From positions 16,076-80,075 of the forward strand of contig DITU01000007.1 in assembly GCA_002422905.1 (NCBI GenBank): a DNA stretch of 64,000 nt, read 5' to 3'. This document shows positions 1,215-47,600 of this stretch, one piece after another; within the stretch, counting starts at the first letter, position 1; the number at the start of each line of letters is the position of its first letter. This DNA comes from Verrucomicrobia bacterium UBA6176 (GTDB lineage: Bacteria; Verrucomicrobiota; Verrucomicrobiia; Limisphaerales; UBA9464). Below the pieces are notes generated by a model that saw only the letters and a list, made by a program, of their open reading frames with translations, made no database searches and was not told where the DNA came from. The position numbers were made by a program, and so were the translations under genes.

Positions 1215-1368
1215 CGGAACCACGAAACCGTATCATCACCCGTCCCGATGCCCGAAAGCGAAAACCCCGCGTCCCATGACATTCCAGCGTCACTCCGGGA
1301 ACATTCTCCCCTAAACCGGGGTCACCATCCTTTGCGGTCCCGCCCGACGTCAGTAGGGTCGCTCCAAC

Positions 1369-2778: not shown

Positions 2779-2803
2779 CCAGGGCGGTCAGACGGGCTCT
2801 CAC

Positions 2804-4354
2804 TCATTCCGGCCCCGCTCCCGCATAACGCCCCAGCAATTCCACCAGGCGATCCATCTCACCCCGGCCCGATGCCCCCGCATCCGCGGATTGATATCCG
2901 TTCACGTAAATCGCAAACCCCAGTCGTGAACCTCCGGCCGTTGTCAGGTGTCCCGCCAACGCATTCACGTGCCGCAACGTCCCCGTCTTCGCCCGGACCA
3001 CCCCCTTCAACGGCCCCCGGGTGAATCGGCTCCACAACGTTCCATCCACCCCTCCCACCGGCATCGCCTCCAGATAGGTCCGTCCCGCCGGATGCCCCGC
3101 CATGTGGCGCAACAACCGAACCGTCGCCGCCGGCGTCATCAGGTTCTTCCGCGACAGACCAGACCCTTCCTCGATCACCAATGACTCCGGCCCAACCCCG
3201 AACCCCGCCGCAAACCGTCCCATCGCCCGGGCCGCCGCATCCGAATCATCCCCCGCCTCCACCCGCTCACCCGCCCTCGGTCGACGCCGCACATCCGCTC
3301 CCACCTGAAGCCAAAGCTGATGCGCGATCAGGTTGTTCGATGGCTTGAGGCACAGGGCCGCGAGTTCACCCATCGACGCCGAAGGCACCGTCCCCAGCAA
3401 CACCGCGGGTGGATCTTCGCGGGACCGGTTCACCTGCCCGCCCACCCGGATTCCCCCGGACACCAGGGCCGCACGCAATCCACGTCCAAACCACTCCGCC
3501 CCGTCCGGGACAGCCAGCCGTTCACCATGGGTCCGGCCCACGCCCACTTCGCCCGAAACCTCCAGCACCCGACTCCCCGGCAATCGCAACACCCGAACCC
3601 CCGCCACCCGGTTCGTCGGTACCGTCCGCACCGTGGACCGGATCTCGAAGACCCCGTCGAAGGGCGCGGTCCGGACCACCGGCTCACCTCCTGCCGTCGC
3701 GGCACCGATCACGACCAACCGGCAGGTGTTGTCTCCAAAGACCAATCCACCCACCGGCGCCCCATAGCCTTCCTGCAGATCATCCCAGTTCCATCCCGGT
3801 CCATACGGCGTTGCCCGGAACCATTCATCCCGCACCACGATCCCGCCCTGGATCGAACGGACACCTGCCTTCTCCAACGCCTCGCGAAACTTCACCAGGG
3901 CCTTCGGATCCAGCAGGCCTTCTCCCGGGGCCGGATCCCCGCCCCCATCAACCCACAGATCTCCCGGCAACACGCCGTCGGAATTGGGCCGACCCGACGC
4001 CAGCAATCGGGTTTCCCACACGTGATTCGTCCCGAACCGATCCAACGCCATCGCCACCGTGAACAGCTTGGTGTTGGAGGCGGGAACAAAGAGACGCGTG
4101 GAATTCGTCTCGAACCAGACCCGGCCGGAATCCATCGAAACCACCTGCACCCCCCAGGTCGATCCCGGCGCCCGTGTCGCCGCCAACGAAGCCGTCAGCG
4201 CATTCCTCAATCCCGCCAGGTCAGTGACCGCCGATTCGGCCGGGCCCGATGCCGTCGCCGCCCCCTGCCCCAACAAGCGAGACGCGAGAAATCCGATCCC
4301 GCCCCAGATCCGGAACCAACTCCCCATTCCCCATCCAGCTTTCAGCCGCATCAA
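2804..4354 (-). CDS. dacB: D-alanyl-D-alanine carboxypeptidase/endopeptidase (PBP4 family)
   Basis: 516 aa with an N-terminal signal. Contains the S-x-x-K block (PASNTKLFT) and the KTG block (RAKTGTL), with a PBP4-like overall length. Confidence 0.85.
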   Translation of the reverse strand: MMRLKAGWGMGSWFRIWGGIGFLASRLLGQGAATASGPAESAVTDLAGLRNALTASLAATRAPGSTWGVQVVSMDSGRVWFETNSTRLFVPASNTKLFTVAMALDRFGTNHVWETRLLASGRPNSDGVLPGDLWVDGGGDPAPGEGLLDPKALVKFREALEKAGVRSIQGGIVVRDEWFRATPYGPGWNWDDLQEGYGAPVGGLVFGDNTCRLVVIGAATAGGEPVVRTAPFDGVFEIRSTVRTVPTNRVAGVRVLRLPGSRVLEVSGEVGVGRTHGERLAVPDGAEWFGRGLRAALVSGGIRVGGQVNRSREDPPAVLLGTVPSASMGELAALCLKPSNNLIAHQLWLQVGADVRRRPRAGERVEAGDDSDAAARAMGRFAAGFGVGPESLVIEEGSGLSRKNLMTPAATVRLLRHMAGHPAGRTYLEAMPVGGVDGTLWSRFTRGPLKGVVRAKTGTLRHVNALAGHLTTAGGSRLGFAIYVNGYQSADAGASGRGEMDRLVELLGRYAGAGPE

Positions 4355-4758: not shown

Positions 4759-4860
4759 TGTGGTGAAACCTGCCGAATGGAGAAGCATTGAGAGGCGGGA
4801 TGAATCCCGCGCTCCCAAGGGAAGGGTTTCACGCGAAGCCCCAAAGAACGCCGAGAAGAC
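4759..4860 (+). repeat. R1 repeat, copy a (~102 bp)
   Basis: tgtggtgaaacctgccgaatggagaagcattgagaggcgggatgaatcccgcgctcccaagggaagggtttcacgcgaagcc... This repeats 212 bp downstream with few differences. Confidence 0.9.
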
Positions 4861-4970: not shown

Positions 4971-5071
4971 TGTGGTGAAACCTGCCGAATGGAGAGGCAT
5001 TGAGAGGCGGGAGAATCCCGCGCTCCCAAGGGAAGGGTTTCACGCGAAGCCGCGAAGAACGCGGAAAGAAG
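4971..5071 (+). repeat. R1 repeat, copy b (~101 bp)
   Basis: Near-identical to 4759-4860, in direct orientation. Confidence 0.9.
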
Positions 5072-5280: not shown

Positions 5281-6078
5281 TTACTTCGCCACGTCCTGCA
5301 ACAGCGTCTTCAGGTCTTCCGCCGGCAAGGCCTTCAGCGCTTCCTTGATCTGATCCACCGTCAAGGCCGCCGGAGCCGCCGCACCCTCGCCCCCGCCCGA
5401 AACGGCAACCCCCTCCAACTCGGCCGCGGACCACGGATCCACCCGGGCCGCAGTCGCTGTCCGGATCGCCGCCACCTCCGCGGCGGACACGGCACTTCCC
5501 TTGTTGCCGAATGAATTGCGGATATAGGTCACGACATTGGCGATCTGGACATCATCCATGCTGTCGCGAAAGGCATTCATCTGGTTGTTATAGGTCGAAC
5601 CCTTGACGGTGATCGGTCCTCCCAACCCATGCAGCACGATGCGGATGATCCGGTTCGGTCCCTCGGCCAAGACCCATTCGGATCCGGCCAGCGGCGGGAA
5701 CTGTCCGGCAACGCCATTGCCATCGCCCTGATGACACGGTGCGCAGTAGGTCACGTAAAGCGGGGTCCCGGCCTTGACCGCCTTGGTAACCGGATCGTCC
5801 CCACCCGAGCCACCCACCACCGGAGGCGGCGCCGGATTGATCTGGTTCTCGGAAAACTCATCCGCGCGGAATCCTCCGCTGTACTGGGTGAGATAGCTGC
5901 CCGCCCAGAACAGGAGGACCGCGATGAACACCACCAACCACAGGTTCAACGGCTCGCTGCCTTCCATCGGTTCGGGACGTTCACGCTGCACCGCAGCATG
6001 CATCTGCACCACGTCCGTCGCCTCTCCCCGGTCAAGGGCGGCGGCGGGATCTAACGGGCGATTGGAATCAGCGCTCAT
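5281..6078 (-). CDS. Membrane-anchored monoheme c-type cytochrome, occupying the CcoP position of the cbb3 cluster
   Basis: 265 aa. One TM helix (LWLVVFIAVLLFWAGSY) and a single CxxCH (YCAPCHQGDG). It starts 10 nt after the ccoO stop. Confidence 0.75.
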   Translation of the reverse strand: MSADSNRPLDPAAALDRGEATDVVQMHAAVQRERPEPMEGSEPLNLWLVVFIAVLLFWAGSYLTQYSGGFRADEFSENQINPAPPPVVGGSGGDDPVTKAVKAGTPLYVTYCAPCHQGDGNGVAGQFPPLAGSEWVLAEGPNRIIRIVLHGLGGPITVKGSTYNNQMNAFRDSMDDVQIANVVTYIRNSFGNKGSAVSAAEVAAIRTATAARVDPWSAAELEGVAVSGGGEGAAAPAALTVDQIKEALKALPAEDLKTLLQDVAK

Positions 6079-6088
6079 GCTCTCGGGT

Positions 6089-6739
6089 TCACTCTTCCAC
6101 AGCCGCAGCCTTGGGCAATGGTGCCTCAGGCAGGTCCACCGTGGTCTTCAAACTCCGCAGGTACTCCACCAATTGCCGCGCCTGCGGGCGGGGCACCACT
6201 TCCCACCCGTCCTCCACCGCAAATTCGCCCGACAACTTCAATGCGTCCGACGACGGTCCGGAAGCCGGCACACGGCGCTTCTCGAAGAGGAACGGGTACG
6301 GGGGCATCACGCTGCCCTTGGAAGTGATCTGGGGATTGTACAGGTGGGAATAATGCCAGTCGTGACTCGACTGACGTTCCCCAATGTTCGTCAGGTCCGG
6401 TCCCGTGCGCGATGTGCCCAGCATCACCGGTTTGTCATAGAGATAATCCCGGCTCACCGTCCGACGCCGTCCCCAACCACGTTCAATGTCCGATCCAAAG
6501 CCCTCGGGCCGGACCTGTTGGCTATGGCAATAGACACATCCCAGCGACCGATAATGTTCGGCGCCCTGCTGGGCTTCCCCATGGCGGGGCTGGGGATAGA
6601 CCACCACCACACCGGTGTCATTGGTCGACGTATTGGCGGTCAAGGCACCCAGTTGGCGATTGGGCATCAACACCAGTCCCACCCAGCTCGAGGCGAGCGT
6701 GAACAGGATTCCGAGAAAGAGGAGCGGTCCGTAATTCAT
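6089..6739 (-). CDS. ccoO: cbb3-type cytochrome c oxidase subunit II (monoheme)
   Basis: 216 aa. N-terminal TM helix and the signature LGCVYCHSQQVRP. It lies 4 nt downstream of ccoN. Confidence 0.85.
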   Translation of the reverse strand: MNYGPLLFLGILFTLASSWVGLVLMPNRQLGALTANTSTNDTGVVVVYPQPRHGEAQQGAEHYRSLGCVYCHSQQVRPEGFGSDIERGWGRRRTVSRDYLYDKPVMLGTSRTGPDLTNIGERQSSHDWHYSHLYNPQITSKGSVMPPYPFLFEKRRVPASGPSSDALKLSGEFAVEDGWEVVPRPQARQLVEYLRSLKTTVDLPEAPLPKAAAVEE

Positions 6740-18290: not shown

Positions 18291-18386
18291 GAACCACGAA
18301 ATCCACGAACCACACGAAAGGAATGGGACATGATCACCCACCTCCCTTTCTGTGTTCTTCGCGTTCTTTGCGGCTTCGCGTGAGAA
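18291..18386 (-). repeat. Intergenic repeat modules: ttcgtg-type and R1 core, both in reverse orientation
   Basis: 18291-18321 gaaccacgaaatccacgaaccacacgaaagg. 18355-18386 ttcttcgcgttctttgcggcttcgcgtgagaa, which is the reverse complement of the tcacgcgaagccgcgaagaacgcg core. Confidence 0.8.
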
Positions 18387-34365: not shown

Positions 34366-34433
34366 CCCGTCCCCACCGCCCACCACGGCGACCGGTGGGG
34401 TCGATAGGTTCATCGTCCTCGGTCCGGAAGAAG

Positions 34434-34514
34434 TTTTCACGCGAAGCCGCGAAGAACGCGAAGGAAGTCCTGCTTCCCCCCATTTTCGTGTCGTTCGTGT
34501 GTTTCGTGGTCCGG
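34434..34514 (+). repeat. Intergenic repeat modules: R1 core and ttcgtg-type
   Basis: 34434-34467 ttttcacgcgaagccgcgaagaacgcgaaggaag. 34484-34514 ttttcgtgtcgttcgtgtgtttcgtggtccgg. Confidence 0.8.
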
Positions 34515-35852: not shown

Positions 35853-36038
35853 GATCCCAAGGCTAGAAATCCACCCCCCGTGCGGCAAGCCACGAGTGGA
35901 AACTTCCTCGGGCGCACATCGGAAAGGAAACCCAGCCGTGCCCATTCTGAGAATGCAGCAGTCATTCAGGGCAACTCGTCGACTGCACCCAAGCCCGTCC
36001 ACATCCCAAAGGGATGGATGCCGGTAGCCCGGGCGTGA

Positions 36039-36410
36039 GCGAAGCGACACCCCGGGTGCCGGTCAAAAAGGTGAATCAACCCCGGAGGGGTTGCAGCCGG
36101 GGTAGGAGCCTGTCCCCGGAGGATCCTTTGCCGCCCCGAAGGGGCATCCATTCCTCAGCCCGGCGCAACGCGCTGGGTTGAACCCTCAAACCTTTCCACG
36201 CCCTGAAAGGGCAAGACCAACCCTCGTGCCATCTCCTTCTGATTTCCCGAGCCTGTCCCTTAGTACGTTGCCGGAAAAGGTTTCACGCGAAGCCGCAAAG
36301 AACGCGAAGAAGACAGGGGACGGCACCGGTGCCTTCCGAAGTTGTTGGCGAGCACGAGGGGTCGCACTCCGTGTGCCGATGAGTTCGTACTCGTACTCGT
36401 ACTCGTTCAC
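36039..36410 (+). repeat. Intergenic repeat mosaic: family-H hairpin repeat, gagcctgtccc motifs, R1 core, actcgt-type module
   Basis: 36039-36093 gcgaagcgacaccccgggtgccggtcaaaaaggtgaatcaaccccggaggggttg, which resembles 58078-58130. R1 core at 36279-36314. cgtactcgtactcgtactcg at 36384-36410. Confidence 0.8.
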
Positions 36411-36469
36411 GCAATCTCCCCATTCCCGCTCCAACAACTTCGGGATGCACAAACGAAGCGCTCCTATGC

Positions 36470-36600
36470 CAATGGACTGTTGGCAACGGAAGAGGGTCCG
36501 TGGTCCACTGACACCGTGGCTTGGGATTACAACAATGCCCGCATGCACAGCGCCCTTCGACCTCAGCAGATCGCCACTCGATGGTGGACCAACAACCATG
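36470..36600 (+). pseudogene. Remnant of the C-terminus of a DDE (rve-type) transposase/integrase
   Basis: One frame reads ...VAWDYNNARMHSALRPQQIATRWW..., resembling the conserved W-x-x-Y-N-x-x-R-x-H-S-A-L tail of IS3/IS481-type integrase cores. No upstream catalytic domain is present. Confidence 0.35.
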
Positions 36601-36706
36601 CGTGGGATGCCTTGCATCGGTCTGAAGACGGCATGCTGCTGCAGGAGCAGAACACCGGGACGCCGCCGATAACTTCTGGCTAAACCATGATCCCCGCATC
36701 TGAATT

Positions 36707-37078
36707 ATGAAGGCCCTTCTGCTCCTGATACTGATCGTGCTCACCCCATTTTTGTGGGGTTGCGAAAAGGCCAAGACTCCTACAGGCAAGATCCATTTTG
36801 CGCTAGGATCGAAGTTATTTGAGCAGGAAGCCTATGCTGCAGCGGCTGAGGAGTATCACAAGGGGGTACTCCTGGGCTCGGCAGTGTGCAGGAGGGGTGA
36901 GCTGGTCTCACTTATAATGGCTTCCGGTGGAACAAACACCGTTTTCCTTGCCAAGGCAAAGGCATCGATGGAGCTGGCACGTTCTTCCGGTGAGACGGGG
37001 GCCGAGGATGCGTATCATACATGGCTAAGGCATGTAGGGGCCGAAGATTGGGAGAAGACGTTGAAATCAGAGCCCTGA
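36707..37078 (+). CDS. Small lipoprotein (possible single TPR-like helix pair) in the low-GC islet
   Basis: 123 aa. Lipobox LTPFLWGC and a TPR-like ALGSKLFEQEAYAAAAEEYHKGVLLG. Local GC is clearly lower than the surroundings. Confidence 0.55.
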   Translation: MKALLLLILIVLTPFLWGCEKAKTPTGKIHFALGSKLFEQEAYAAAAEEYHKGVLLGSAVCRRGELVSLIMASGGTNTVFLAKAKASMELARSSGETGAEDAYHTWLRHVGAEDWEKTLKSEP

Positions 37079-37236
37079 AAAGCTGTCTGAAACCAATGAG
37101 AACTGAGGAGGGCAAGGGAGGGCATGCGAAAAGAACGAAGTCACGCCCCCCTTCTTAGGGAACTGCACCTGGAACAATGATCGAATCAATTGCCCAAGCT
37201 TTGGACGCGTCCCGATTCGACCTCTGAGTCAAACCC

Positions 37237-37596
37237 ATGAAAACATGGCCAATCATTGGCGAAGGCGGGGAGGCGGTTGCCTTTGAGGTAAGCATGTTAC
37301 AAAGTTCCCTGACTAGAATCAGGAACATCATTCAGTCCAATCCAGACGCCTCTCGAATCACTTGCCGCCCCAGGTTCAGTGGTTCTGAAATTCACATCTC
37401 CTTCGAGTATCGTGGCGCGGAATACGCCGTATGGGAACCGTTTGGTGACAATAGTAGGTACTGGATCACCCCGGTGAACAGCGCGCCCAACCCTGTAGAT
37501 GTTGCGAGTTTGCGAGGATATTTTGACTCCTACCCGCCCTCCCTGCGAGAGCGGATGTTTGGATGGGCCGAAAGGGACATATTTGGTCGGTTATAG
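37237..37596 (+). CDS. Hypothetical cytoplasmic protein in the low-GC islet
   Basis: 119 aa with no signal peptide and no recognised motif. Its amino-acid composition looks like a real protein rather than an Arg/Pro/Gly-rich GC artefact. Confidence 0.45.
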   Translation: MKTWPIIGEGGEAVAFEVSMLQSSLTRIRNIIQSNPDASRITCRPRFSGSEIHISFEYRGAEYAVWEPFGDNSRYWITPVNSAPNPVDVASLRGYFDSYPPSLRERMFGWAERDIFGRL

Positions 37597-37657
37597 ATTT
37601 TTTCCACCTCCACCAAACAAGATTTCAACCCGAGCTCTGGTATCAGAGTAGGACGCA

Positions 37658-38026
37658 ATGGGGTCAGTCCCATACTGTTGACAAATGTCTATCCTGTTGG
37701 AGGCCTTTTCCCGGGCTCGACCTTTTGCGGATTCAGGTGTCGGACGGAGCGGACAACGTGATGGGTCGTGGCCGCGGCGGACCAAGCATCTACCACGATG
37801 ACGTGGATCGGCGCCGGTTACTTGGGTGGGTTTCTGAGCCACAAGAGCGTTGCGGCCGTCCCGTCATTGGCAGGGGAAAACGGGGGCTTGGTGACCATGA
37901 CTCAAGTAACCGCAATGGAGCGATGTTGAGGGTCTCGACAGCAGTTTCTGGGACATCCTGACACCCACTTCACCGCTCAAACCCTCTCCGGGATTTTCCC
38001 CATCGGACATTTATCCTTTACAGAGC
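37658..38026 (+). repeat. 369-bp duplicated non-coding element, copy 1 (candidate structured RNA or mobile/regulatory element)
   Basis: Direct repeat of 39022-39389 with about 20 differences by hand alignment. Contains a nested hairpin whose 13-bp outer stem pairs 37815-37827 with 37890-37902. Confidence 0.85.
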
Positions 38027-38349
38027 ATGAAATCAATGGGGTCGGCTGGCCGTGCCCCACTGGGAAACAGCTCTCCTCCCTGGAAACAGCGCTCTTGGGA
38101 GTTTTCAGACGGGCTCCGAGGATGACACCAACCAAAGCGAGTACAAAGCGACCTGGACATCGGACGATGCCAAAGCCCTGCTGGCCGATTGTCAATATTA
38201 CGGAACTGACCCCATTGCCTCCTCCTCCCGTCAACGGACCCAAAGCCCACTTGACGTGCCGGTTCCATCGCCACAACGTGCAAAAACATAAATCAATTCG
38301 CGAAAACAGAACGCTGATTCTTATCAAGACAATTCAATTATAATCCCTG

Positions 38350-39015
38350 ATGAAGACCCTTTACCTCATTCCCTGCCTCCTGCTCGCCAATGCCGGACTC
38401 CAAGCCGTGGCGCAATCCGTCACCCAGTCCGTCCCCTTCAATTTCTCCAATTCAGGGCCGTTGCCCCTAACGGTCGTCACTCTCGGAGAGTTCACCGGCA
38501 CCTTCCAACCCTTCAACCCAGCCCTGGGCACCCTGGAATCCTTCCAGATCAATTGGTCCATCGACTTCGCCGCGAGCGGCACGGTGACGGGTGATCCCAG
38601 TGGCAGTTTCAATGCCTCGGCTAGCGGCGGCTATCGCCTCAACGGGCTCAGCAATGGTGGCTATAGCAATAGCGACGGGGACGGAGGGCCAACTGACCAA
38701 CCCGTCTCCCTTGCTTTTAGCGTCGCCGACCCCGACCTGTTTCTGGTCAGCAATGCAGGCGTGACCTACAACCCCTCGCTCCTAGCGGTCGTCCTGGGCG
38801 CCAACTCCTTCCCCATTGATTGGGATACAGCCTATGTCATTTCCGGTAGCGGTGTCGGCGGAGTCTCTGGCTCGGCCATCGGCAGTGTGGAGCTCATCTA
38901 CAACTACAGCTTGGTGCCGGAAGCCGACACTTACGCCGCGGCCGGCCTGCTCGTGGCCGCGGTGGGCGGAGTCGCCTGGCGCCGCCGAAGCCAGGGCCAG
39001 GCCGTCCAGTCCTGA
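38350..39015 (+). CDS. PEP-CTERM sorting-domain protein
   Basis: 221 aa. Signal peptide MKTLYLIPCLLLANAGLQAVAQS and C-terminus VPEADTYAAAGLLVAAVGGVAWRRR. Confidence 0.75.
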   Translation: MKTLYLIPCLLLANAGLQAVAQSVTQSVPFNFSNSGPLPLTVVTLGEFTGTFQPFNPALGTLESFQINWSIDFAASGTVTGDPSGSFNASASGGYRLNGLSNGGYSNSDGDGGPTDQPVSLAFSVADPDLFLVSNAGVTYNPSLLAVVLGANSFPIDWDTAYVISGSGVGGVSGSAIGSVELIYNYSLVPEADTYAAAGLLVAAVGGVAWRRRSQGQAVQS

Positions 39016-39021
39016 GAATCG

Positions 39022-39389
39022 ATGGGGTCAGTCCCATACAGTTGACAAATCTTTGGCCTGTTGAAGGCCTTTCCCCCGGCTCGACCTTTGCGGATTCAGG
39101 TGTCGGACGGAGCGGACAACGTGATGGGTCGTGGCCGCGGCGGACCAGGCATCACCGCAAAGACAAGGATCGGCGCCGGTTACTTGGGCGGGTTTCTGAG
39201 CCACAAGAGCGTTGCGGCCGTCCCGTCATTGGCAGGGGAAAACGGGGGCTTGGTGACCATGACTCAAGTAACCGCAATGGAGCGATGTTGAGGGTCTCGA
39301 CAGCAGTTTCTGGGACATCCTGACACCCACTTCACCGCTCAAACCCTCTCCGGGATTTTCCCCATCGGGACCTTTATCCTTTACAGAGC
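39022..39389 (+). repeat. 369-bp duplicated non-coding element, copy 2
   Basis: See copy 1. It ends 44 nt upstream of the ATG of the beta-barrel gene at 39433. Confidence 0.85.
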
Positions 39390-39432
39390 GTGCCTGCATG
39401 GGGCTAGTCACTTCCAAATTGTCGCCCCAGCC

Positions 39433-40545
39433 ATGCAAGATTTCCCCTCACACAAACCCTTTTCTCGCATCCGCCTCCTCGTCCGCTTCGTCATCGGAGG
39501 TGCTCTCCTGGCCGACACTCTCGCTGCCCAGGACGCGCAATCCGGCGTCGGTCCACGGGATGACATCCGCCGGATCCGTGAACCGGCCGGCAAATGGCGG
39601 GTGGGTTTCGGATACGCCCATTTTCTGAATGTCCCCGCCCGGTTCCACGGCCTTGGCGGCAATCCCGCTGCCCTGCCCCTGCCTCCCGGCGGAACCCCCG
39701 GCTTCGGCGAATACGACGACGGCTACGTGCGCGCCGACATCAGCGGCGATACCACCCTCACCAGCAACTGGGGTTACTCCAACGACAGCCAGTTCGATCC
39801 CGCCAATGGCGGCAGTCTGGCTCTCTCCGTCACCCAGGGAATTGCCGGCGGCGGATCGAGTCACACCACGGAAAACGCTCCGGGCTTTGAACTGTTCGCC
39901 CTGCGCGAAATGGGCCGGGTGGAGTTCAATCAAACCGTCCTGCCCTGGGGATTCTCCAGCCGACTCCACTACGCCCGATTCGATGTCGAAGATTCCGGCT
40001 CGGTCCCGCTCAATGCACGTCGCATCACCGACCGGTTCGCCTTCAATGGCGTGATTCCGCCGCTCGCTCCCTACAACGGCAATTTCACCGGGCCTGGGGC
40101 CCTGATCTCCACCGCCGCATCGCGCACCGAATCGATCGTACCCGGAGGCTCCACCTCCCGCGGAATGCGCCAACTGGAAGTGGACCTGGTTTCATCCAGC
40201 TTCGGGGCCTGGATCGAGATCCCGTTCTCGGACCGTTGCTCCCTTGAACTCGAAGGCGGCATCTCCCTCGCCATCGCCGACGGCAGCTACGCGCATCAAT
40301 CCGAAGTCACCGGACCCGGCGGTGTCCTCGGGACCACCAGCGACCAGGATGACCGGACTTCACTCCTTCCCGGGTTCCACCTCGGGCTCGCCGCAACCTA
40401 TGGCCTCACCGAGCGCTGGGATTTCCTCCTCAGCGGCCGATACCAATACCTGGATGACTTCGCCATCCGCGCCGGTTCATCCGCCGCGGAACTGTCCTTC
40501 AGCCACTCCTTCGTCCTGACCGCCGGCGTCCGCTTCCGGTTCTAA
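39433..40545 (+). CDS. Putative outer-membrane beta-barrel protein
   Basis: 370 aa. Signal-like SRIRLLVRFVIGGALLADTLAAQ, alternating hydrophobic strands, and a C-terminal ...SFVLTAGVRFRF with a terminal aromatic residue typical of OMP barrels. Confidence 0.55.
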   Translation: MQDFPSHKPFSRIRLLVRFVIGGALLADTLAAQDAQSGVGPRDDIRRIREPAGKWRVGFGYAHFLNVPARFHGLGGNPAALPLPPGGTPGFGEYDDGYVRADISGDTTLTSNWGYSNDSQFDPANGGSLALSVTQGIAGGGSSHTTENAPGFELFALREMGRVEFNQTVLPWGFSSRLHYARFDVEDSGSVPLNARRITDRFAFNGVIPPLAPYNGNFTGPGALISTAASRTESIVPGGSTSRGMRQLEVDLVSSSFGAWIEIPFSDRCSLELEGGISLAIADGSYAHQSEVTGPGGVLGTTSDQDDRTSLLPGFHLGLAATYGLTERWDFLLSGRYQYLDDFAIRAGSSAAELSFSHSFVLTAGVRFRF

Positions 40546-40558
40546 CCCGATTTCCTCC

Positions 40559-41659
40559 ATGAAAACTCCCCTATCAACCGCGCTCGCCCTGTTGATCCCC
40601 CTTTGTGCCGCGGCACGCCAACCCGGGCCCACCACCATCGGTTTCGATCGCCCGACTTATACCGCCCCCCTCGGAGCCACCGTGACGGGTTCCATCGTCA
40701 TCGATCCGGTGCCCGCTGGCGGTCTCTATAGTCAGGGAACAATCCTCACGGTCCGGGACCGGTCCGGCAACCTGGCCGGGGTGGTGACTCCCGTGCCCGC
40801 AACCGTGCTTCAACACGACGGCGTGCGTCTCACCGGCCCGCGCCAGTCGGTTGCAGGGAACGGCACCGGCCGGATCAAATCATCGACCGCCTTCTCCATC
40901 GACCGCCCCACCCTGCTGGTACCGACCATCGCCACCTTCAGCATCGGCAATCTTCCCGCCGGCACCTACGACCTTCAGCTCGCACCGTGGAACGAACTCG
41001 GTGTCACCGAGAACATCTTTGTCACCGGCCAATCCAGAACGCTCGACCCGGTCCTCACCTTCCTGCCCGCCACCATCGAGATCGTGGGCCAATCCCTGCC
41101 GGAACTCACCGAATCCGGTCCGGTCACCCTCCAACGCCAGACCGGTCTGCTTGAACAACGGGTGACCGTGTCCAACACCACCGGCGGAACCCTCGCCGGG
41201 TTCCGCATCCTCGTCGGTTCACTGCCCGACAACGTCCAACTGCGAAATGCACACGGCATGATCGATGGCGTTCCCTATATCGACGTTCTGACCCAGTTGG
41301 CCCCGGGCGCCGCCGTTTCCCTCGTTCTCGAATATTACCGGCCCAGCCGCGACCTGAACTTCATCCCAACCTTCACTGTCGCCCGACCCGGCGGTACCCC
41401 ACCGGATCCAGGATCCCTGGGCCTGCTGGATGTCAACCTGCGCGTGCTGCGCCGGGATGCCGGTGGCCTGCTCGTCGAGTTCCTCTCCGGAAAGGACCGA
41501 CCCTATAGGATCGAGTACAGCGACGACCTGATGACCTGGAAGGTCAGCGTCCCGGATGTCATCGGAACCGGTGAACGGATCCAATGGTTGGATAACGGCC
41601 CACCCAAGACCGAATCGTTCCCCGCCACCAACCGCTTCTATCGGCTGACCTCCGAATGA
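40559..41659 (+). CDS. Secreted hypothetical protein with a C-terminal W...RFYRL module, translationally coupled to the Rhs gene
   Basis: 366 aa. Signal peptide MKTPLSTALALLIPLCAAA and C-terminus RPYRIEYSDDLMTWKV...TNRFYRLTSE. Its stop overlaps the Rhs ATG (ATGA at 41656-41659). Confidence 0.65.
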   Translation: MKTPLSTALALLIPLCAAARQPGPTTIGFDRPTYTAPLGATVTGSIVIDPVPAGGLYSQGTILTVRDRSGNLAGVVTPVPATVLQHDGVRLTGPRQSVAGNGTGRIKSSTAFSIDRPTLLVPTIATFSIGNLPAGTYDLQLAPWNELGVTENIFVTGQSRTLDPVLTFLPATIEIVGQSLPELTESGPVTLQRQTGLLEQRVTVSNTTGGTLAGFRILVGSLPDNVQLRNAHGMIDGVPYIDVLTQLAPGAAVSLVLEYYRPSRDLNFIPTFTVARPGGTPPDPGSLGLLDVNLRVLRRDAGGLLVEFLSGKDRPYRIEYSDDLMTWKVSVPDVIGTGERIQWLDNGPPKTESFPATNRFYRLTSE

Positions 41660-44600
41660 ATGCCGCATCGCTCCCACCCTTTTCCCCTTCCTCCGCCATG
41701 TTCATGAGCCTTCTTCCCCGCTCCACCGCACTCTTCCTGCTCACCCTGCTCGCCATCCTCCCCGATGCACGCGCCCAGTTTCCGCCCGACCCGGCCGAGT
41801 TGCCCCAGGTGATTGAACCCTGGATCAACGCGGGCCAACCGCAGCGTTCCATGATCCAGACGATCGGTGTCCGCTTCGACCGCAATGTCGCCGGTCGCGT
41901 CCAGCCCGGCACCCTCCGCCTGCGGCACGTCGAGACCGGAACCGAGATCGATCTTTCCGCGACAGAACTGATCTATGATCCCAGGAACCAATCCGCCAAC
42001 TGGATGCTGGACCGGAACCCGGGAGCATTGTTGCCGGACGGAAACTATATCGGGTGGATCGAGCGCGACACCCTGCTCGACCCCGCGCGCCGCGCGCTCT
42101 TTGAGGTCAACGGACTGCCCCTGCCGGACTTCACCTTCTCCTTCCATCAACTGTCGGGAGACAGCGATGGGGATCGCGACGTCGATTTCCTCGACAGCTC
42201 CATCCTGAGATCCGCCTGGCAGGAACTGCTGGGAGCGCCGCTCTACCAGTCCTTCCTCGACTTCGACATCAGCGACCGGGTGGATGAAGCGGATCGGGCG
42301 CGGGTCGAGGCCACCTATTTTACCCTCCTGCCGTCGCGTCCCGCGATCCATCTCTTCCTCCAGAACGACACCGGTGAAAGTCCGTCGGACCGGGCCACCG
42401 CACTCTATGCGGTCGGCATGGACACCACGGATTTCGCCCCCGTCACCACCTGGACGGCGGGATTGAATGGGGGAACCGGCATCGACGTGACCTCGCGGGT
42501 CGGATCCGGGCGCGCGATCCTGGATGAAGCGTTTCTGGATCAACTCAACGGTGCACCCCTGGCACCGGGTCTCTTCCAATTGAGGGTGGAAGCCCGGGAT
42601 GCAGGCGGAACCGTGGTGGCCACGGACCGACTGGATTTCGAATACCTCGGACGCGTTGCCTATGCGCCGCACTTTGTTTCCGAACCGCCTCCGGGGGTTG
42701 CCCTGGGTCGGGTGCGGGCTCCCGAACCGCTCAACCTCTCGACCTGGACGGTTGAAAGCTGGCCCGGCAGCCAGACCGTCTCCCAATGGATCATCGCGCC
42801 GGACGGACTTTCGGTTGAACAAACCCGCAATTCACGACCTTCCGCCCTCGTCAGCGACCGCAGCTTCCAGAACCTGCGCGTCACTGGCCGCTTCCGTGTC
42901 GACACCTCCTCGGACGACGACCTGATGGGCTTCATCTTCGGCTACCAGAACAACAAGCAGTTCTATCTGTTTGATTGGAAACAGGGATCCCAGGGCTTTG
43001 TCGGCGGCCTCGCCCTGCGCGGCATGAGCATCAAACGCGTGGACGCCGGCGACCGGGTGTTCACCGAACCGGACTTCTGGTGGTCCGACCGGGATCGCGA
43101 GAACACCACCGTGCTCGTCGCACCCAACGACATCCCCTGGCGGGATTTCCAGGATTACGACATTTCCCTCGAATTCAGCGCCGGCCGCATCGTGGTTGAG
43201 GTGCGCGAAGCGGGCACATTGCTCGACCGGTTGGAAGTGGAAGACAACACCTTCACCGGCGGACGGTTCGGGTTCTATAACTATTCCCAGGACTCCGTCA
43301 TCTACAGTGGCTTCACCCAGGAATTCCTCGACAACGTCTATTCCTACGATTCAGAGGCCATTGATCCCGACGGCGGCACCATCACCTATACCCTTCGCGA
43401 TTCTCCCCCGGGCGCTTCACTCAACCCCGCCAACGGCGTCCTCAACTGGCAGCCCGACGCCGCGGGAGATTTCCCCTTCGCCATTGTGGCCACCGACCCG
43501 GACGGTCTTACCGATGTCCAGGAGTTCAATGTCCGCGTCAGCCCCGTTGATCTCCCCCCCACCGTCTACATCGCCAAGACAAGTCCCGCCCTGTTCCCCG
43601 GTGATCCGGTCGGCATCCAGGTGTTGGCCGCAGACGACCAGCAACTCGCCGGTGTCCGGCTCTTCATCGACGGCCTCGAAGTCACCCTGGATGAAACCCG
43701 TTCCATCACCACCCAGTTCACTGTTCCCGCACTCATCGAACTGCGCGCGGTCGCGGTCGATTCCGCCGAACAGGTTTCCGAAATCACCTCCCACATCCGG
43801 GTGCTCGATCCGGCCTCACCGGTCCCGGACCAGCCGGGAACCATCGCAGTGGCTCCGCCCGGACAGACCACCGGAACTACCAGCGATCTCCGTCCCCGCG
43901 TCTCGTTCCAAGCCCCGCGGTCGACCAACGACGATCCGACCCGGTTCATTGGCACCGTTCATCCCAACGGCGGGATCCTTGATGAATGGGCACTTGAATG
44001 GGCGCCCCTGGCCCGGGTCGACACCGCCAACCTCGCCTCACCAGCCGTCCTTTGGCAGGCCCTGGCCCAGGGCACCAACTCCTTCGATGCCGCCGAATTG
44101 GCGACCATCGTTCCGTCCCAGTTTCCGGATGAACCCATCGCCTTCCGGCTCCGTGCCCGGAACGTCACCGGCCTCGGTTCCATGGTAAGTGTCGTCTTCA
44201 ATCCCCGACGCAGTTCCACCACCGGCCCCGGGCAGGTCACCGGCACCGGATCCGGCGTCCGCCCGGTCGCTTCGTTCAACGCCCCACTTTCGCCCGCGGA
44301 CGACCGCACCCTCCTTCGCGGCACGGTTTCCACCACCGGCACCACCCTCCAGCGATGGTTCCTCGACTACGCGCCGCAGAACCGCGTGAACACGACGAAT
44401 CTCCTGGATCCGGCGGTGAACTGGACATTGTTGGAACAGGGTGCCGCTGGCTTTACCAACAACCTCCTCACCACCCTCGATCCTGCTGATTTCCCCAACC
44501 AGACCTTCGTCTTCCGTCTCACCGCGGTCAGCACCGGCGGCCTCGGCAGCGTCGCCACCGTCGTTTTCAACCCGGTCGCCACCGACTTCTCCGGCCCCAC

Positions 44601-47600
44601 GGACAGCACTGGTTCAAGCCCCGGCACCGCCATCCGTCCCCTGACCCGGATCACCGCACCCACCAAGCCCACCGACGACCGTTCTGTCCTGGTCGGCACG
44701 GTCTCGGCCAACGGCGGTGCGCTGGCAAACTGGATCGTCGACTACGCCCCGCGTTCCCAGGTCAATGCCGAGGATCTCACCGATCCTGCCGTTGCCTGGA
44801 CCCGCCTCGCCGAGGGCTCTTCCGAGGCGACCCTCGCCCCGCTCGCCTCCCTTTCAGATCCTGCCTTCAACAACGGGGTGTGGATCCTGCGTCTGCAAGC
44901 CTTCAACACCAACGGCCTCGGCAGCCTCGCCACCATCCAGTTCGATTCCGGCGACACCTCCACCCCCAGCGTCGCCCTCACCGCGCCCGCTCCCGAATCG
45001 GATATCGGCTTCCTCACCGAAGTCCGAGGCACCATCGGCGCCGGATCCGGAGTCCTGGATTCTTGGAAGCTTGAGATCGCCCCGTCCGAGGAAGTCTCCC
45101 TCAACACCCTCAACAATCCCAATGCCAGCTGGGTGGAACTCGGCTCCGGCAATTCCCCCGTCCAGAATGGCCGGCTGGGCACCCTCGATCCCACCCTCCT
45201 GCGCAACGGTTCCTATGTGCTCCGTCTCCGCGCCTTCAACTCCAATGGGCGGGGCCTCGCCGACGGCCTCCTGATCCATGTCTCCGGCGAAGCCAAACTT
45301 GGCAATTTCCGCCTCGAATTCGAAGACCTCAACATCCCGCTCGCCGGCGTCCCCATCCGCGTCCGACGCATCTACGACACCCTCAATGCCAATCGTTCGG
45401 GCGACTTCGGCCACGGCTGGTCCCTCGACATCGGTGATCCCGAGATCCGCGAGACCGTGCCGGACACCGGCGACAGCTATTTCTTCGCCACACCCTTCGA
45501 GATTGGCACCCGGGTTTTCCTCACCAACCCCGAGGGCCGGCGCGTCGGATTCACCTTCAATGTCCGCAACCCCCGCAACCGCTTCCTCTATGTCGATCAC
45601 GAGCCCTTCTTCGAACCGGACCCCGGCGTTTACGACATCCTGACCATTGCCCCGTCCGACTACGAACGGGTGCAGGTCGATGAAGCCGGCGCGGTCTATA
45701 CCCCGCTGCTTCCGTTCGGATATAACCCCGACCGTTACCGTCTCACCACGCGCGAAGGCACCGTCTATGCCTACGACCAACGCACCGGCCTCCAACGCAT
45801 CACCGATCGCGCCGGTCAATTCGTCACCTTCACCCGCAGCGCCATCACCCACAGCAGCGGCCAGGCCGTCGCCCTCACCCGCGATTCCCGCGGTCGCATC
45901 ACCCGCATCACCGCCCCCGACGGCTCCGCCACCCAATACCGCTACGACACCAATGGCGATCTCGTCGCCGTCGAGGATCCCAATGGCGGTGTCACCTCGC
46001 TTTCCTATCTGCGGCGCCCGGCCCATTACCTGGACCGCATCGCTGATCCCGTCGACGCCGCCCGCGGACGTCATACACGCCGGGTGATCTATGAGGACGG
46101 CCGCTTCGCTCGGGTCGAGGACGGCGACGGCAATGTCATCGCCAGCCAATCGAATCAACCCGGCCAGTTCGACGGCACCCGTACCGATGCCTTGGGCAAC
46201 GTCACCCAACTCCTGTATGACACGCGGGGAAATATCGTCCGCGAAGTCTCGCCCACCGGCGCCGTCACCCTCATCGAGTACGGTGACCCCGCCAATCCGG
46301 ACAAGGAAACCGCGCTCGTCGATCCCAACGGGAACCGCACCACCTTCTCCTACGATTCGCGCGGCAATCTCCTCACCCTCACCGCCGCCTCCGGCACCGT
46401 TCACCAGACCACCTACGACGCCTTCAACCGGCCCGTCCAGGCCGTCATCCGGTCCGCCCAGGGCATGACCAACATCTCCGTCCGGGTGGTGCGCGACACC
46501 GGCGGACGTCCCATTGAAGTCCGGGATCAACTCGGTCGCGTCCGAACCCTCCAGTACGATCCCTCCGGCCGGATCACCCAGTTCACCGACTACGACGGAA
46601 GCGTTCGTACCTTCGAGTACGATTCCACCAACCCGCACCGGCACCCGAATCGGGTCACCATCGGCGGCGACACCTTCCGCTTCACCTACAACTCACGCGG
46701 GCTTCCCCTCGAAATCACCGATCAACGCGGCAACCTCACCACCTTCCGTTACGACGCCATGGGGAACCTCCTCGAACGTCGTACCGGTTCCAATGAACCC
46801 ACCCGGTTCCTCTACAATTCCAACAACGACGTCGTCCGCGTCGTGGATCCCATGGGCCGCATCAAGGAGTTCTCCTATGACTCCGCCCGACGCCTCATCG
46901 AGGACATCACCGTCGTCACCGACAACGGAGATTCCTCCGACGACATCGTCGTCCGCTATTCCCACGACATCGCCGGCCGGCTCACCGCCATCACCGATCC
47001 CAACGGCCGCATCACCCGGTACGAATACGATGCCGATGGCCGGCGCACCGCGGAGATTGATCCCGCCGGCAACCGCATCGCGTCGGTCTATGACGGCAAT
47101 GGCAACATCGTGCGCCATACCGACCGGCGCGGTTATGTCCGGACCTTTGCCTATGATTCCCACAACCGTCAGATCCGCGAGGACTGGCTCGATCCGGTGA
47201 CCGGCGAGGTCGTCGAATCCATCGGCGCCGAATTCAATGCCTTCGGCGCCCTGACCGGAATCCAGGACAGCAGCACCCGCTACCGGATGACCTACGGGAT
47301 GAACGGCATGTTGATGTCCATTTCCAACTTCGGATCCCAGGGCCAACCCCAGGTCAGCCTGATGACCGCCTATCATTCCAGCGGCCTCATCTCCGCCATC
47401 ACCGACAACACCGGGGTCCGCGTCGGCCGTTCCCATTCCGCCAACGGCGACCTCACCGGGACCACCTGGTCCGGCGCGTCACTTGCTCCGCATCACGTCC
47501 AGTTCCAACATGATCCCGACGGACTGCCCACCGAGGTTGCCCGGCACGCCGCCCTCAACGCCTCCGCCCTCGTCAGCCGCACGCGCATCGAACGCGATCC

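Follow-up and report, generated by a model that had tools for sequence, protein, structure and literature searches.

The question raised by this locus is what a sequence of about 372 bp represents that occurs twice within the 64-kb stretch of DNA analysed (the window), once ahead of a PEP-CTERM gene and once ahead of an OMP-Rhs operon. The direct repeats that had been described in an earlier note on this DNA were found back on the plus strand, at 37658-38029 and 39022-39392, their ends lying slightly beyond those given at first (38026 and 39389). They are 94.6% identical across 373 alignment columns. The 17 substitutions and three single-base indels amount to 20 differences, in agreement with the previous estimate of about 20, and the alignment bears out that an indel shifts the reading frame between the copies. 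A long identical stretch is present too, although it measures 177 nt, ending at 38004, instead of the roughly 190 nt claimed. Both TTGACA boxes (37678-37683 and 39042-39047) are located where they had been placed.

The two copies lie 1.36 kb apart and, in an A-B-A layout, bracket a gene (38350..39015, plus strand) of which the translation is a secreted protein of 221 amino acids with a PEP-CTERM-type tail (VPEADTY, a hydrophobic helix, and RRR). Copy 2 is followed on the same strand by an operon (39433..49044) consisting of an OMP-like gene (370 aa), a gene coding for 366 aa, and an Rhs-repeat gene (2462 aa); Pfam returned RHS_repeat (6.6e-70) and a weak OMP_b-brl match for this operon, and the gene calls on other contigs agree. 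The A-B-A layout recurs in independent metagenome assemblies and at least four further samples provided contigs across its junctions, indicating that it is no assembly artefact. The organism is represented in ERZ27315062, JGI 3300001605/3300001239, SRR5323105, and SRR943326. One such contig (L006) covers the 3' end of the PEP-CTERM gene, copy 2, and the OMP gene, and another one (L009) covers a 119-aa ORF and copy 1 as far as 38220, its copy 1 being a mosaic of which the central tract matches copy 2. A paralogous relationship between the PEP-CTERM and OMP-like proteins, which would imply a tandem duplication, was rejected, as these proteins display no similarity. An ORF at 36342..36683 containing YNNARMHSAL was considered as a C-terminal remnant of an IS3/IS481 transposase and was discarded, since Pfam (E<=10), PDB, and plasmid tblastn searches were all empty. 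The region 37000-40000 further contains a single terminator-like site (37260-37248, minus strand), which is unrelated, and a TATAAT hexamer occurs at 38341-38346, downstream of the copy 1 repeat.

A first part of the answer is found in the left half of the repeats. The left ~205 nt of each copy consist of a TIR and the first ~60 codons of a transposase gene, which are frameshifted and truncated. In copy 1, a left TIR of the TIRtron type (37646..37684, plus strand), holding GGGGTCAG (GGGGWSAS motif) and a TTGACAA box, is followed by the N-terminal ~60 codons of a Y1/HUH (TIRYT-like) transposase pseudogene (37685..37865, plus strand), as revealed by tblastn and the translations. Similarly, the left TIR of copy 2 (39010..39048, plus strand), of which the likeness to copy 1 starts at the ATGGGG at 39022, is followed by the same N-terminal pseudogene fragment (39049..39227, plus strand; tblastn and BLASTP). 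Indeed, by tblastn, the translation of 37725-37856 aligns over 44 aa with residues 14-57 of the protein of an intact relative, L105, at 64% identity (E=4e-9). For copy 2, the alignment with the latter protein is split between frame +1 (39049-39153) and frame +3 (39153-39227; tblastn, two HSPs), and the ORF at 39061..39291 is 49% identical to it over 37 aa (BLASTP, E=5e-8). At the DNA level, a profile was built from five full-length elements and run with nhmmer on the 64-kb window. It matched 37651-37855 (profile positions 5-208, E=9e-28), 39017-39217 (E=4.5e-26), and, on the minus strand, 38224-38123 (profile positions 3-109, E=1.5e-8); the only other match in the window at E<=0.001 concerned the TIR of this last match, read alternatively, and with a weaker score, as a right end (38179-38221, E=4e-4). 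The minus-strand match represents a third, inverted remnant (38123..38227), composed of a TIR in the left-end form TTGACAAT and ~70 nt of the 5' end of the element, which brings the number of such TIRs in the window to three. The stretches 37646-37684 and 38189-38227 constitute a 39-nt inverted repeat with 85% complementarity, both being of the left-end type; they delimit 582 bp (37646-38227) that were considered, like the 372-bp unit, as a candidate MITE.

The pseudogene state of these fragments is clear from their translations. Copy 1 is frameshifted after M..ARP (~37723) and reads GADNV where the intact relatives have a conserved GWYHV, and copy 2 carries a different frameshift, caused by a 1-nt deletion at ~39153. 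Both fragments stop around residue 60, ahead of the HUH motif and the catalytic Tyr (translations, tblastn), an intact catalytic core with these two features is absent from the copies in the window, and no intact TIRYT gene was retrieved from the 64 kb by tblastn. Lacking the HUH motif and the catalytic Tyr, disrupted by frameshifts, and with GWYHV lost, the fragment is unable to encode a transposase, and the window copies are therefore relics. The shift in reading frame had been interpreted before as an argument against coding. This holds insofar as neither copy is a working gene, but the sequence was once coding, the copies carrying different frameshifts in one ancestral frame. Indeed, a conserved ORF emerged when more copies were aligned, namely the transposase N-terminus, and the repeat clearly matches the end of a known IS family, two outcomes that the earlier note itself had listed as refuting its interpretation.

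The intact relatives were found in other Verrucomicrobiota. The TIR pattern ATGGGGTCAGTNCCNTANNNTTGACAA had nine exact matches in eight DNA stretches from four Verrucomicrobiota MAGs, with ~0.07 expected by chance. In those loci, the TIRs occur as inverted pairs ~1,127 bp apart around one ORF of 358-362 aa. When the left TIR is compared with the right one, L105, L106, L107, and L108 show 22-24 matches over 27 positions, and each of these TIRs has GGGGTCAG or a closely similar sequence. The enclosed ORFs score 36-41 bits for Pfam Y1_Tnp (cut-off 23), and the proteins possess NHYH at residue 69, YLHLNP at residue 129, and a C-terminal extension of ~200 aa, in which no HTH or DnaA_C-like domain was detected by Pfam at E<=0.01; PDB sequences did not yield a match at E<=0.01 either. 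Their best NCBIfam match is REP_Tyr_transpos, with 56-57 bits against a cut-off of 80. TIRYT transposases are relatives of RAYT and of the IS200 TnpA. The elements are multi-copy within a genome, with three present in 8 kb of L106 and three contigs carrying them in one MAG, and internally deleted, MITE-like derivatives of the family occur in L109 and L112.

The right half of the repeats has another origin. The right half of copy 1 (37866..38029, plus strand) displays no transposon similarity, is identical or almost identical to that of copy 2 (39228..39392, plus strand), and is homologous to positions 626-830 of L011, a contig of 3.1 kb from a Logan assembly that is ~91% identical to this locus. 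In copy 2, it runs on into the 40 nt ahead of the OMP-like start codon at 39433. The TIRtron profile gave no nhmmer match to the right half, and neither this half nor 38030-38122 could be recognised as a decayed interior or 3' part of a transposase gene (nhmmer --max; tblastn, E<=10). The contig L011 has a single upstream region, without PEP-CTERM gene and without duplication, linking window position 36315 to 39206 via an unrelated 339 bp. On one side, the upstream flank 36030-36315 is 92% identical to it, and on the other side, L011 626-3107 is 91% identical to 39206-41679. At the place corresponding to the transposon relic, L011 contains only a degenerate TIR-like sequence (~63% match) without significant match to the transposon profile. 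Its homologue of the right half is 81% identical, as compared with 91.5-92.8% for the coding sequences of the two adjacent genes, and comprises two fully kept blocks of 24 nt (CCGCAATGGAGCGATGTTGAGGGT) and 29 nt (GGGACCTTTATCCTTTACAGAGCGTGCCT). Judged from this single short contig, the right half (~175 nt) is apparently DNA that was resident ahead of the OMP-Rhs operon. The PEP-CTERM gene has homologues of 64-70% identity that occur in other genomic contexts, without the element.

The composite nature of the repeats bears directly on the nested hairpin for which a structured plus-strand RNA had been proposed. This hairpin occupies 37815..37912 (plus strand; 39177-39274 in copy 2). Its 13-bp stem does exist, with the 5' arm CGGTTACTTGGGT at 37815-37827 as reported, but the 3' arm ACTCAAGTAACCG is located at 37900-37912 and not at 37890-37902, so that the hairpin spans 98 nt and not 88 nt. 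With hand-picked ends, it folds at -42.3 kcal/mol, corresponding with z-scores of -3.4 (plus strand) and -3.1 (minus strand) versus shuffles, and ranks in the top 0.8% after GC correction. Such a fold, the location of both copies upstream of same-strand genes, and the long upstream non-coding regions that are typical of PEP-CTERM genes (PMC1569441) might point to a 5' leader or sRNA of which the hairpin regulates both the PEP-CTERM gene and the OMP-Rhs operon. However, the minus strand folds similarly well, the whole 372-nt element has z-scores of +0.1 (plus strand) and -1.0 (minus strand), and 985 out of 18,258 windows of 98 nt placed at arbitrary phase in the 64 kb (5.4%) fold equally well or better. 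Furthermore, the 5' arm corresponds with the pseudogene codons R-L-L-G-(W), hence with formerly coding sequence, and the 3' arm is part of the right half, which is unrelated. Within the 13-bp stem, the copies differ by one substitution only (T37827 to C), by which a pair is lost, and two-sided compensatory changes were found in none of the 59 predicted pairs, a comparison of low power because of the availability of two distinct sequences only. In L011, the long stem is absent, the 5' arm region being occupied by unrelated sequence and the 3' arm being altered and split by a 10-nt insertion; the equivalent region adopts a different fold with a z-score of -1.2. Screening of the whole window against Rfam, as the earlier note had advised for both copies, did not yield any family at gathering score, and the region 36500-40500 gave only three chance-level matches at E<=10 (E 4.6-6.7). 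Finally, similar DNA occurs at none of 80 OMP-homologue loci across Verrucomicrobiota, all lacking such an upstream sequence, and at none of three PEP-CTERM-homologue loci. With Rfam empty, a fold at background level, no compensatory change, and no stem in L011, a regulatory plus-strand RNA is highly improbable. The element is most likely no novel RNA, and the hairpin looks like a fortuitous pairing of ex-coding transposase sequence with unrelated DNA. For genome annotation, this means that a convincing "conserved nested hairpin" in duplicated non-coding DNA can consist of a transposase pseudogene and local DNA, and that the appropriate annotation of the region is "remnant of a TIRtron (Y1 transposase)" rather than "candidate RNA".

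The 372-bp copies are thus very probably a transposon fossil, composed of the 5' end of a TIRtron and local upstream DNA, that was duplicated locally. For the order of events and the mechanism of recombination, we infer the following scenario. A TIRtron-type element would first have entered the DNA ahead of the OMP operon and then decayed. Subsequently, the decayed end and the adjacent upstream block would have been copied locally, and this in one piece, because both copies possess an identical truncation junction. This duplication may have taken place with or around a segment of ~1 kb carrying the PEP-CTERM gene and the third, inverted remnant, which would have resulted in the A-B-A layout, and the identical core of 177 nt may reflect recency or gene conversion rather than selection. 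The former suggestion of a non-autonomous mobile element came close, the left half being the end of a Y1-transposase element, but the repeat as a whole appears to be a decayed, locally duplicated fragment. The A-B-A structure further suggests how small rearrangements may use transposon relics as their source of homology and thereby bring accessory surface-protein genes beside an Rhs operon.

A simple segmental duplication leaves one feature unexplained, namely the presence of short direct repeats, ATGGGG(TC/CT), on either side of each copy. The sequence ATGGGGTCAG opens each copy, and ATGGGGTCGG or ATGGGGCTAG appears within 5-6 nt after the end. These belong to partial TIR-like 12-mers, ATGGGGTCGGCT at 38036..38047 (plus strand), 6 nt past the end of copy 1, and ATGGGGCTAGTC at 39398..39409 (plus strand), 5 nt past the end of copy 2, the latter reading ATGGGGTTAGTC in L011. 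Together with the start of the TIR, ATGGGGTCGGCT brackets the copy 1 unit as a short direct repeat, and five of the 14 matches of the 12-mer pattern in the window fall within 37658-39409. The 372-bp unit might therefore be read as a non-autonomous element between ATGGGG(TC) sites that is moved in trans by a TIRYT cutting there, copy 2 having arisen by transposition instead of recombination. In agreement with this, MITE-like deletion derivatives exist in the TIRYT-element family, and, in other genomes, a tandem duplicate of the outer part of the TIR, ending with GCAATGGGG, lies immediately beyond the left ends in L106, L108, and L112, and the junction invariably follows ATGGGG, which hints at a cleavage or target site. 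However, only two copies of the unit are known, both in this locus and both accompanied by OMP-upstream DNA that is resident in L011, and the ATGGGGYTAG site after copy 2 is present in the unduplicated L011 as well. The window lacks an intact transposase gene. In addition, copy 2 has a single TIR, no target-site duplication is visible, and the window does not contain a further copy, a third full one being absent from its 64 kb. Searches beyond the window point the same way. Protein look-ups of the ORFs overlying the repeat returned the locus itself only; a 93-aa ORF had no match, a 76-aa ORF retrieved only its own 61-aa gene call and two low-complexity giants, and the cluster of this 61-aa gene call has two members, both from this locus. 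A 20-mer from the 3' arm of the hairpin had no match in the genome contig collection, the three genome and five metagenome matches of a 20-mer from a conserved right-half block extend over 20-24 nt only and are due to chance, and blastn of 37640-38349 against plasmid and phage collections did not give a match. Transposition of the 372-bp unit is accordingly improbable, and it is just as doubtful that a TIRYT acting in trans would excise and re-insert a 372-bp block between two ATGGGG sites, with a unit beginning with ATGGGGTC and followed by a second ATGGGG(TC/CT). If true, TIRtrons would mobilise adjacent host DNA, in this case the upstream region of an operon, and thereby carry fragments with a promoter to further genes, the PEP-CTERM gene being an example. 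Also, cleavage after GGGG, if it occurs, would explain the tandem partial TIR duplications; these offer a testable guess at the cleavage site, with single-stranded GCAATGGGGTCAGTCCCGTA as a candidate substrate. To our knowledge, no biochemical study of the TIRYT family has ever been performed.

Compatible with an origin as a duplicated transposon fossil is a later co-option of the fossil end as a promoter or regulatory module shared by the PEP-CTERM gene and the OMP-Rhs operon, both of which would be driven by the TTGACA box of the TIR or co-regulated by a factor that binds the TIR. A perfect TTGACA is kept in the left TIRs and oriented toward the downstream genes, the gene that immediately follows each copy codes for a surface or secreted protein, and the two right-half blocks mentioned above are fully conserved in L011. 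However, a scan of 37000-40000 for sigma-70-type promoters did not reveal any promoter-like site, a good -10 hexamer was not seen by eye 16-18 nt after TTGACA, and in the comparison with L011 the right half is 81% identical versus 92% for neighbouring non-coding DNA. Moreover, TTGACA is present in the TIR of all family members, whatever their neighbours, so that its presence does not require a host function. Based on these sequence features, such a co-option may be considered unlikely, albeit less so than transposition of the unit.

Comparison with known systems places the repeats as follows. The upstream cis-element of proteobacterial PEP-CTERM genes, which is restricted to Proteobacteria, consists of a motif 1 ending with TTTACA and a sigma-54 -24/-12 site (Haft et al. 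2006, PMC1569441). The present locus shares with it a long non-coding region ahead of a single-gene PEP-CTERM unit and TTTACA at 38015-38020 and 39378-39383. It differs in that the TTTACA of copy 2 lies just 50 nt from the OMP start codon, and a sigma-54/PrsR-type PEP-CTERM motif (PMC1569441) was rejected, as inspection by eye did not reveal GG-N10-GC at the published spacing. The A-B-A cassettes flanked by MITEs or other repeats, which arise by recombination between repeated elements, resemble the locus in that two direct, mobile-derived repeats bracket a single accessory gene, here the PEP-CTERM gene, whereas the copies are incomplete as MITEs, half of each being resident upstream DNA.

Among transposable elements, IS200/IS605 members have subterminal hairpins, no TIRs, and a TnpA of ~150 aa. 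They share the Y1 HUH transposase (Pfam Y1_Tnp) with the intact relatives, but the latter have clear TIRs of 27-39 nt and an ORF of ~360 aa and do not belong to this family. Similarly, the intact relatives are not REPtrons (RAYT plus REP/REPIN), although they have the transposase superfamily and inverted flanking repeats that also disperse alone in common with them. Indeed, their REP_Tyr_transpos score is below the cut-off, their TIRs of 30-40 nt replace the palindromic REPs tagged with GTAG, and gene and TIRs are multi-copy, whereas RAYTs are typically single-copy (PMC5581495). The closest resemblance is with the TIRtrons, of which the TIRYT TIR consensus is GGGGWSAS (PMC3733652; PMC6006769). 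The relatives have a single Y1/HUH gene that, with 358-362 aa, exceeds a RAYT in length, and their long TIRs overlap the gene ends and carry GGGGWSAS as GGGGTCAG. As in TIRtrons, TIRs also occur solo, clustered, or in deleted derivatives, and the left halves in the window match the 5' end. The relatives probably belong to subclass 2.1 of TnpA-Y1 (Quentin et al. 2018, PMC6006769), a subclass for which a C-terminal HTH or Bac_DnaA_C-like domain is reported. Unlike TIRtrons, the sequences in the window are truncated, frameshifted 5' fragments fused to unrelated DNA, and the relatives in Verrucomicrobiota are multi-copy per genome and more IS-like than most described TIRtrons. The occurrence of multi-copy TIRYT elements of ~1,127 bp, with GGGGTCAG in their TIRs, in Limisphaerales and Verrucomicrobiales-like MAGs extends this little-studied class of HUH-transposase elements to the Verrucomicrobiota.

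The direct repeat upstream of the OMP-like gene is real. It consists of two copies of approximately 372 bp (37658-38029 and 39022-39392) that share 94.6% identity across 373 aligned columns, differing by 17 substitutions and three one-base indels, in agreement with the roughly 20 differences counted in the earlier note. The long identical stretch described there was found as well, its length being 177 nt (ending at 38004) instead of about 190 nt. Either copy starts with ATGGGGTCAGTCCCATAC(T/A)GTTGACAA, and a 39-nt segment at the start of copy 1, of which 12 nt lie to the left of the copy, forms an inverted repeat with 38189-38227 (85% complementarity; BLAST E=1.7e-6 in the window). The gene between the copies (38350-39015) encodes a 221-aa product, the translation of which displays a signal peptide and a PEP-CTERM-like tail, and 40 nt separate the end of copy 2 from an operon composed of the OMP-like gene, a 366-aa gene, and an Rhs gene. 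The best OMP homologues occurred in genomes of Verrucomicrobiales, Haloferula, and Luteolibacter, and the organism is Verrucomicrobiales-like. The repeat junctions recurred in independent contigs assembled from four or more other metagenomes, indicating that the arrangement is genuine; several assemblies ended within the repeat, as is expected for a repeated sequence.

This repeat is a duplicated fossil of a Y1-transposase element of a known type, joined to local upstream DNA. Species-representative genomes were scanned for the left-end motif ATGGGGTCAGTNCCNTANNNTTGACAA, in which 22 bases are specified; this retrieved nine exact matches on eight DNA stretches, against approximately 0.07 expected by chance, all in Verrucomicrobiota MAGs, namely Limisphaerales NI281-mx-bin16 (two matches), Limisphaerales CRY1-m2-bin13 (three contigs), bin Ja1_bin-3224 (two contigs), and a bin labelled Akkermansia (two contigs). 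The motif proved to be, at these loci, the terminal inverted repeat (TIR) of a unit of ~1,127 bp (L105, 991-2118; L107, 6714-7840; L108, 4562-5688; L106, 572-1697 and 2969-4095), with 70-96% identity across genomes. Each unit contains one ORF of 358-362 aa, starting directly after the left TIR, which passes the cut-off of the Pfam family Y1_Tnp ('Transposase IS200 like'; 36-41 bits, cut-off 23), while for its best NCBIfam match, 'REP-associated tyrosine transposase', the score of 57 bits did not reach the cut-off of 80. The motifs NHYH and YLHLNP are located at residues 69 and 129 of the protein, respectively. MITE-like derivatives with an internal deletion were present at L109 and L112 (6632-6952). 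L106 (1-8000; NI281-mx-bin16, OZ260084.1) holds three copies or part-copies of such a gene with its TIRs (TIRtron) within 8 kb, at 572-1697, 2080-2109 (a right-end-type TIR of the TTTACAT form), and 2969-4095. One L106 ORF is cut to 246 aa and the HUH motif of L107 reads NHYN, indicating that many 'full-length' copies are decaying too.

A DNA profile built from five full-length units and run against the window matched the left half (~205 nt) of both copies on the plus strand, at 37651-37855 (profile positions 5-208; E=9e-28) and 39017-39217 (positions 7-208; E=4.5e-26), and a third fragment on the minus strand, at 38224-38123 (positions 3-109; E=1.5e-8). Elsewhere in the window, only a weaker right-end reading of the TIR at 38179-38221 (E=4e-4) was obtained at E<=0.001, and the right half of the repeat gave no match. 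The translation of 37725-37856, LRIQVSDGADNVMGRGRGGPSIYHDDVDRRRLLGWVSEPQERCG, shares 64% identity with the L105 protein at residues 14-57 (E=4e-9). In both copies, the conserved GWYHV is changed into GADNV and the relic stops around residue 60, short of the HUH motif. The repeat had been read as non-coding; this holds insofar as neither copy is intact, with a +1 frameshift after M..ARP in copy 1 and a -1 frameshift at ~39153 in copy 2, but the similarity to the L105 protein contradicts that it never was coding.

The closest relative, a ~3.1-kb metagenome contig (L011), was identified through OMP-like protein homologues and has ~91% DNA identity to the window and 93% identity for the OMP-like protein. 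Its positions 1-286 align with window 36030-36315 and its positions 626-3107 with 39206-41679, the 339 bp in between being unrelated to the window. L011 lacks 36316-39205, comprising three small ORFs, copy 1, the PEP-CTERM gene, and the left half of copy 2. Of the element, only the right half is present, with an identity (81%) lower than that of the neighbouring coding sequences (91.5-92.8%) and of the mostly non-coding flank 36030-36315 (92%). Similar upstream DNA was absent from 80 OMP-homologue loci across Verrucomicrobiota, and no similar DNA was found at the PEP-CTERM-homologue loci. On two relatives' contigs, an ECF-type sigma factor gene (Sigma70_r2/r4_2; L012, 7055-7959; L013, 143-733) precedes by ~2 kb an OMP/739-aa/giant-protein operon, the OMP-like protein being 46% identical; it belongs to a trio of minus-strand genes that point away from this operon, and a pseudouridine synthase gene occupies the interval. 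The arrangement hints at a possible mode of regulation for such operons where the transposon relic is missing.

The stretch 36316-39205 (~2.9 kb; opposite L011 287-625), missing from this ~91%-identical relative, resembles a small islet that was acquired or rearranged, an appearance to which the G+C content contributes (51-58% over ~36600-38400 versus 62-69% in the surroundings). It contains a 123-aa lipoprotein-like ORF (36707..37078), a 119-aa ORF (37237..37596), and short tandem hexamers (TCGTAC, three to four times; 36383-36405); its small ORFs had no match in Pfam or NCBIfam. A separate interspersed repeat of ~40 nt, GGTTTCACGCGAAGCCGCAAAGAACGCGAAGAAG, has five window copies (4819-4860, 5030-5071, 18350-18383 on the minus strand, 34424-34463, and 36271-36316), those viewed in their context being non-coding; shuffled sequences gave none for its 29-nt core pattern. 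The last copy ends exactly at the L011 synteny breakpoint and has its L011 counterpart at 250-286. A small palindromic REP-like sequence, TCAGCCCNNCGCAACGCGCTGGGT, is repeated in the non-coding DNA of the lineage (window 36132-36179; L011 126-149 and 592-615; L023, a PEP-CTERM-homologue locus, 2624-2670), one copy in L023 being located downstream of the PEP-CTERM homologue and one copy directly left of the conserved right-half block of L011.

The earlier note had proposed a plus-strand structured RNA, centred on a nested hairpin. The 3' arm ACTCAAGTAACCG was indeed present, although at 37900-37912 instead of the 37890-37902 given there, making the hairpin 98 nt long instead of 88 nt. As an RNA structure, it was not supported. 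In the Rfam search suggested at the time, no family passed the gathering threshold anywhere in the window, and around the element there were only three matches at E<=10, all of chance level. The full element folded no better than shuffled sequences (z = +0.1 and -1.0 for the plus and minus strand, respectively). With exactly chosen ends, the hairpin reached -42.3 kcal/mol (z = -3.4; minus strand, z = -3.1), a value equalled or surpassed by 985 of 18,258 (5.4%) 98-nt windows of arbitrary phase from the same 64 kb; after GC correction, and with its ends optimised, it ranked in the top 0.8%. Within the 13-bp stem, the copies differ by a single substitution, T37827 to C, which disrupts a base pair. 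The homology boundary with L011 lies within the hairpin; L011 has no counterpart of the 5' arm, its 3' arm is altered and also has a 10-nt insertion, and the equivalent region folds differently (z = -1.2). None of the 59 pairs in the consensus fold of the alignable part (window and L011) displayed compensatory changes. The 5' arm, CGG TTA CTT GGG T (37815-37827), corresponds to codons R-L-L-G-(W) of the transposase pseudogene.

The common truncation junction and the common inactivating substitutions indicate that the block was duplicated as one piece after decay of the element; the two copies are not independent insertions. Each copy consists of the left TIR and a ~60-codon transposase relic, followed by ~175 nt of resident OMP-upstream DNA. 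We infer the order of events and the mechanism of duplication. The A-B-A pattern that resulted surrounds a ~1-kb segment with the PEP-CTERM gene and the third relic, which is inverted, and would fit recombination among such relics. Between the copies, 5% of positions differ, compared with 8-19% in orthologous non-coding DNA; the duplication is younger than the separation from the L011 lineage, unless that lineage has lost it. Recency or gene conversion accounts for the identical core better than selection does, as conservation of this stretch in L011 amounts to only ~81%. In a strain-variant contig (L009, SRR943326), positions 642-1062 (window 37640-38060) represent a mosaic copy 1, with flanks and both ends of copy 1 and a central tract of copy 2 type (eight differences over ~45 nt); the mosaic reflects gene conversion between the two copies or, alternatively, a chimeric path in the short-read assembly.

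A transposase, instead of recombination, may have moved the 372-bp block, although the probability of this is small. A partial TIR start is found 5-6 nt past each copy (ATGGGGTCGG at 38036 and ATGGGGCTAG at 39398, the latter occurring in L011 too), and the outer TIR segment with a few flanking bases is repeated in tandem just outside left ends at L106 (~4093-4140, minus strand), L108 (~5686-5720, minus strand), and L112 (~6605-6637), for example (TCGGGGCAATGGGG)x3 and (TTGTAAAGCAATGGGG)x2, with the junction after ATGGGG every time. These tandem duplications may represent a footprint of TIRYT cleavage or a target site, TIRYT being the Y1 transposase gene flanked by TIRs. The TTGACA of the TIR might further act as a promoter for downstream genes; a simple sigma-70 scan gave no promoter-like site.

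Among known systems, IS200/IS605 elements have no TIRs and a short TnpA, unlike the Verrucomicrobiota units. REPtrons, which combine GTAG REPs with a single-copy gene (PMC5581495), differ from these units as well. The names TIRYT and TIRtron were given by Di Nocera et al. 2013 (PMC3733652) to RAYT-like Y1 transposase genes between long TIRs, many of which have GGGGWSAS in common, overlap the gene ends, and make up repeat families of moderate abundance; Quentin et al. 2018 (PMC6006769) equate them with TnpA-Y1 subclass 2.1, characterised by long C-terminal extensions. The Verrucomicrobiota units correspond to the TIRtron definition, and GGGGTCAG of the window TIR fits GGGGWSAS exactly. The kind of element was already known, and it is the multi-copy TIRtron family in Verrucomicrobiota that is new here.
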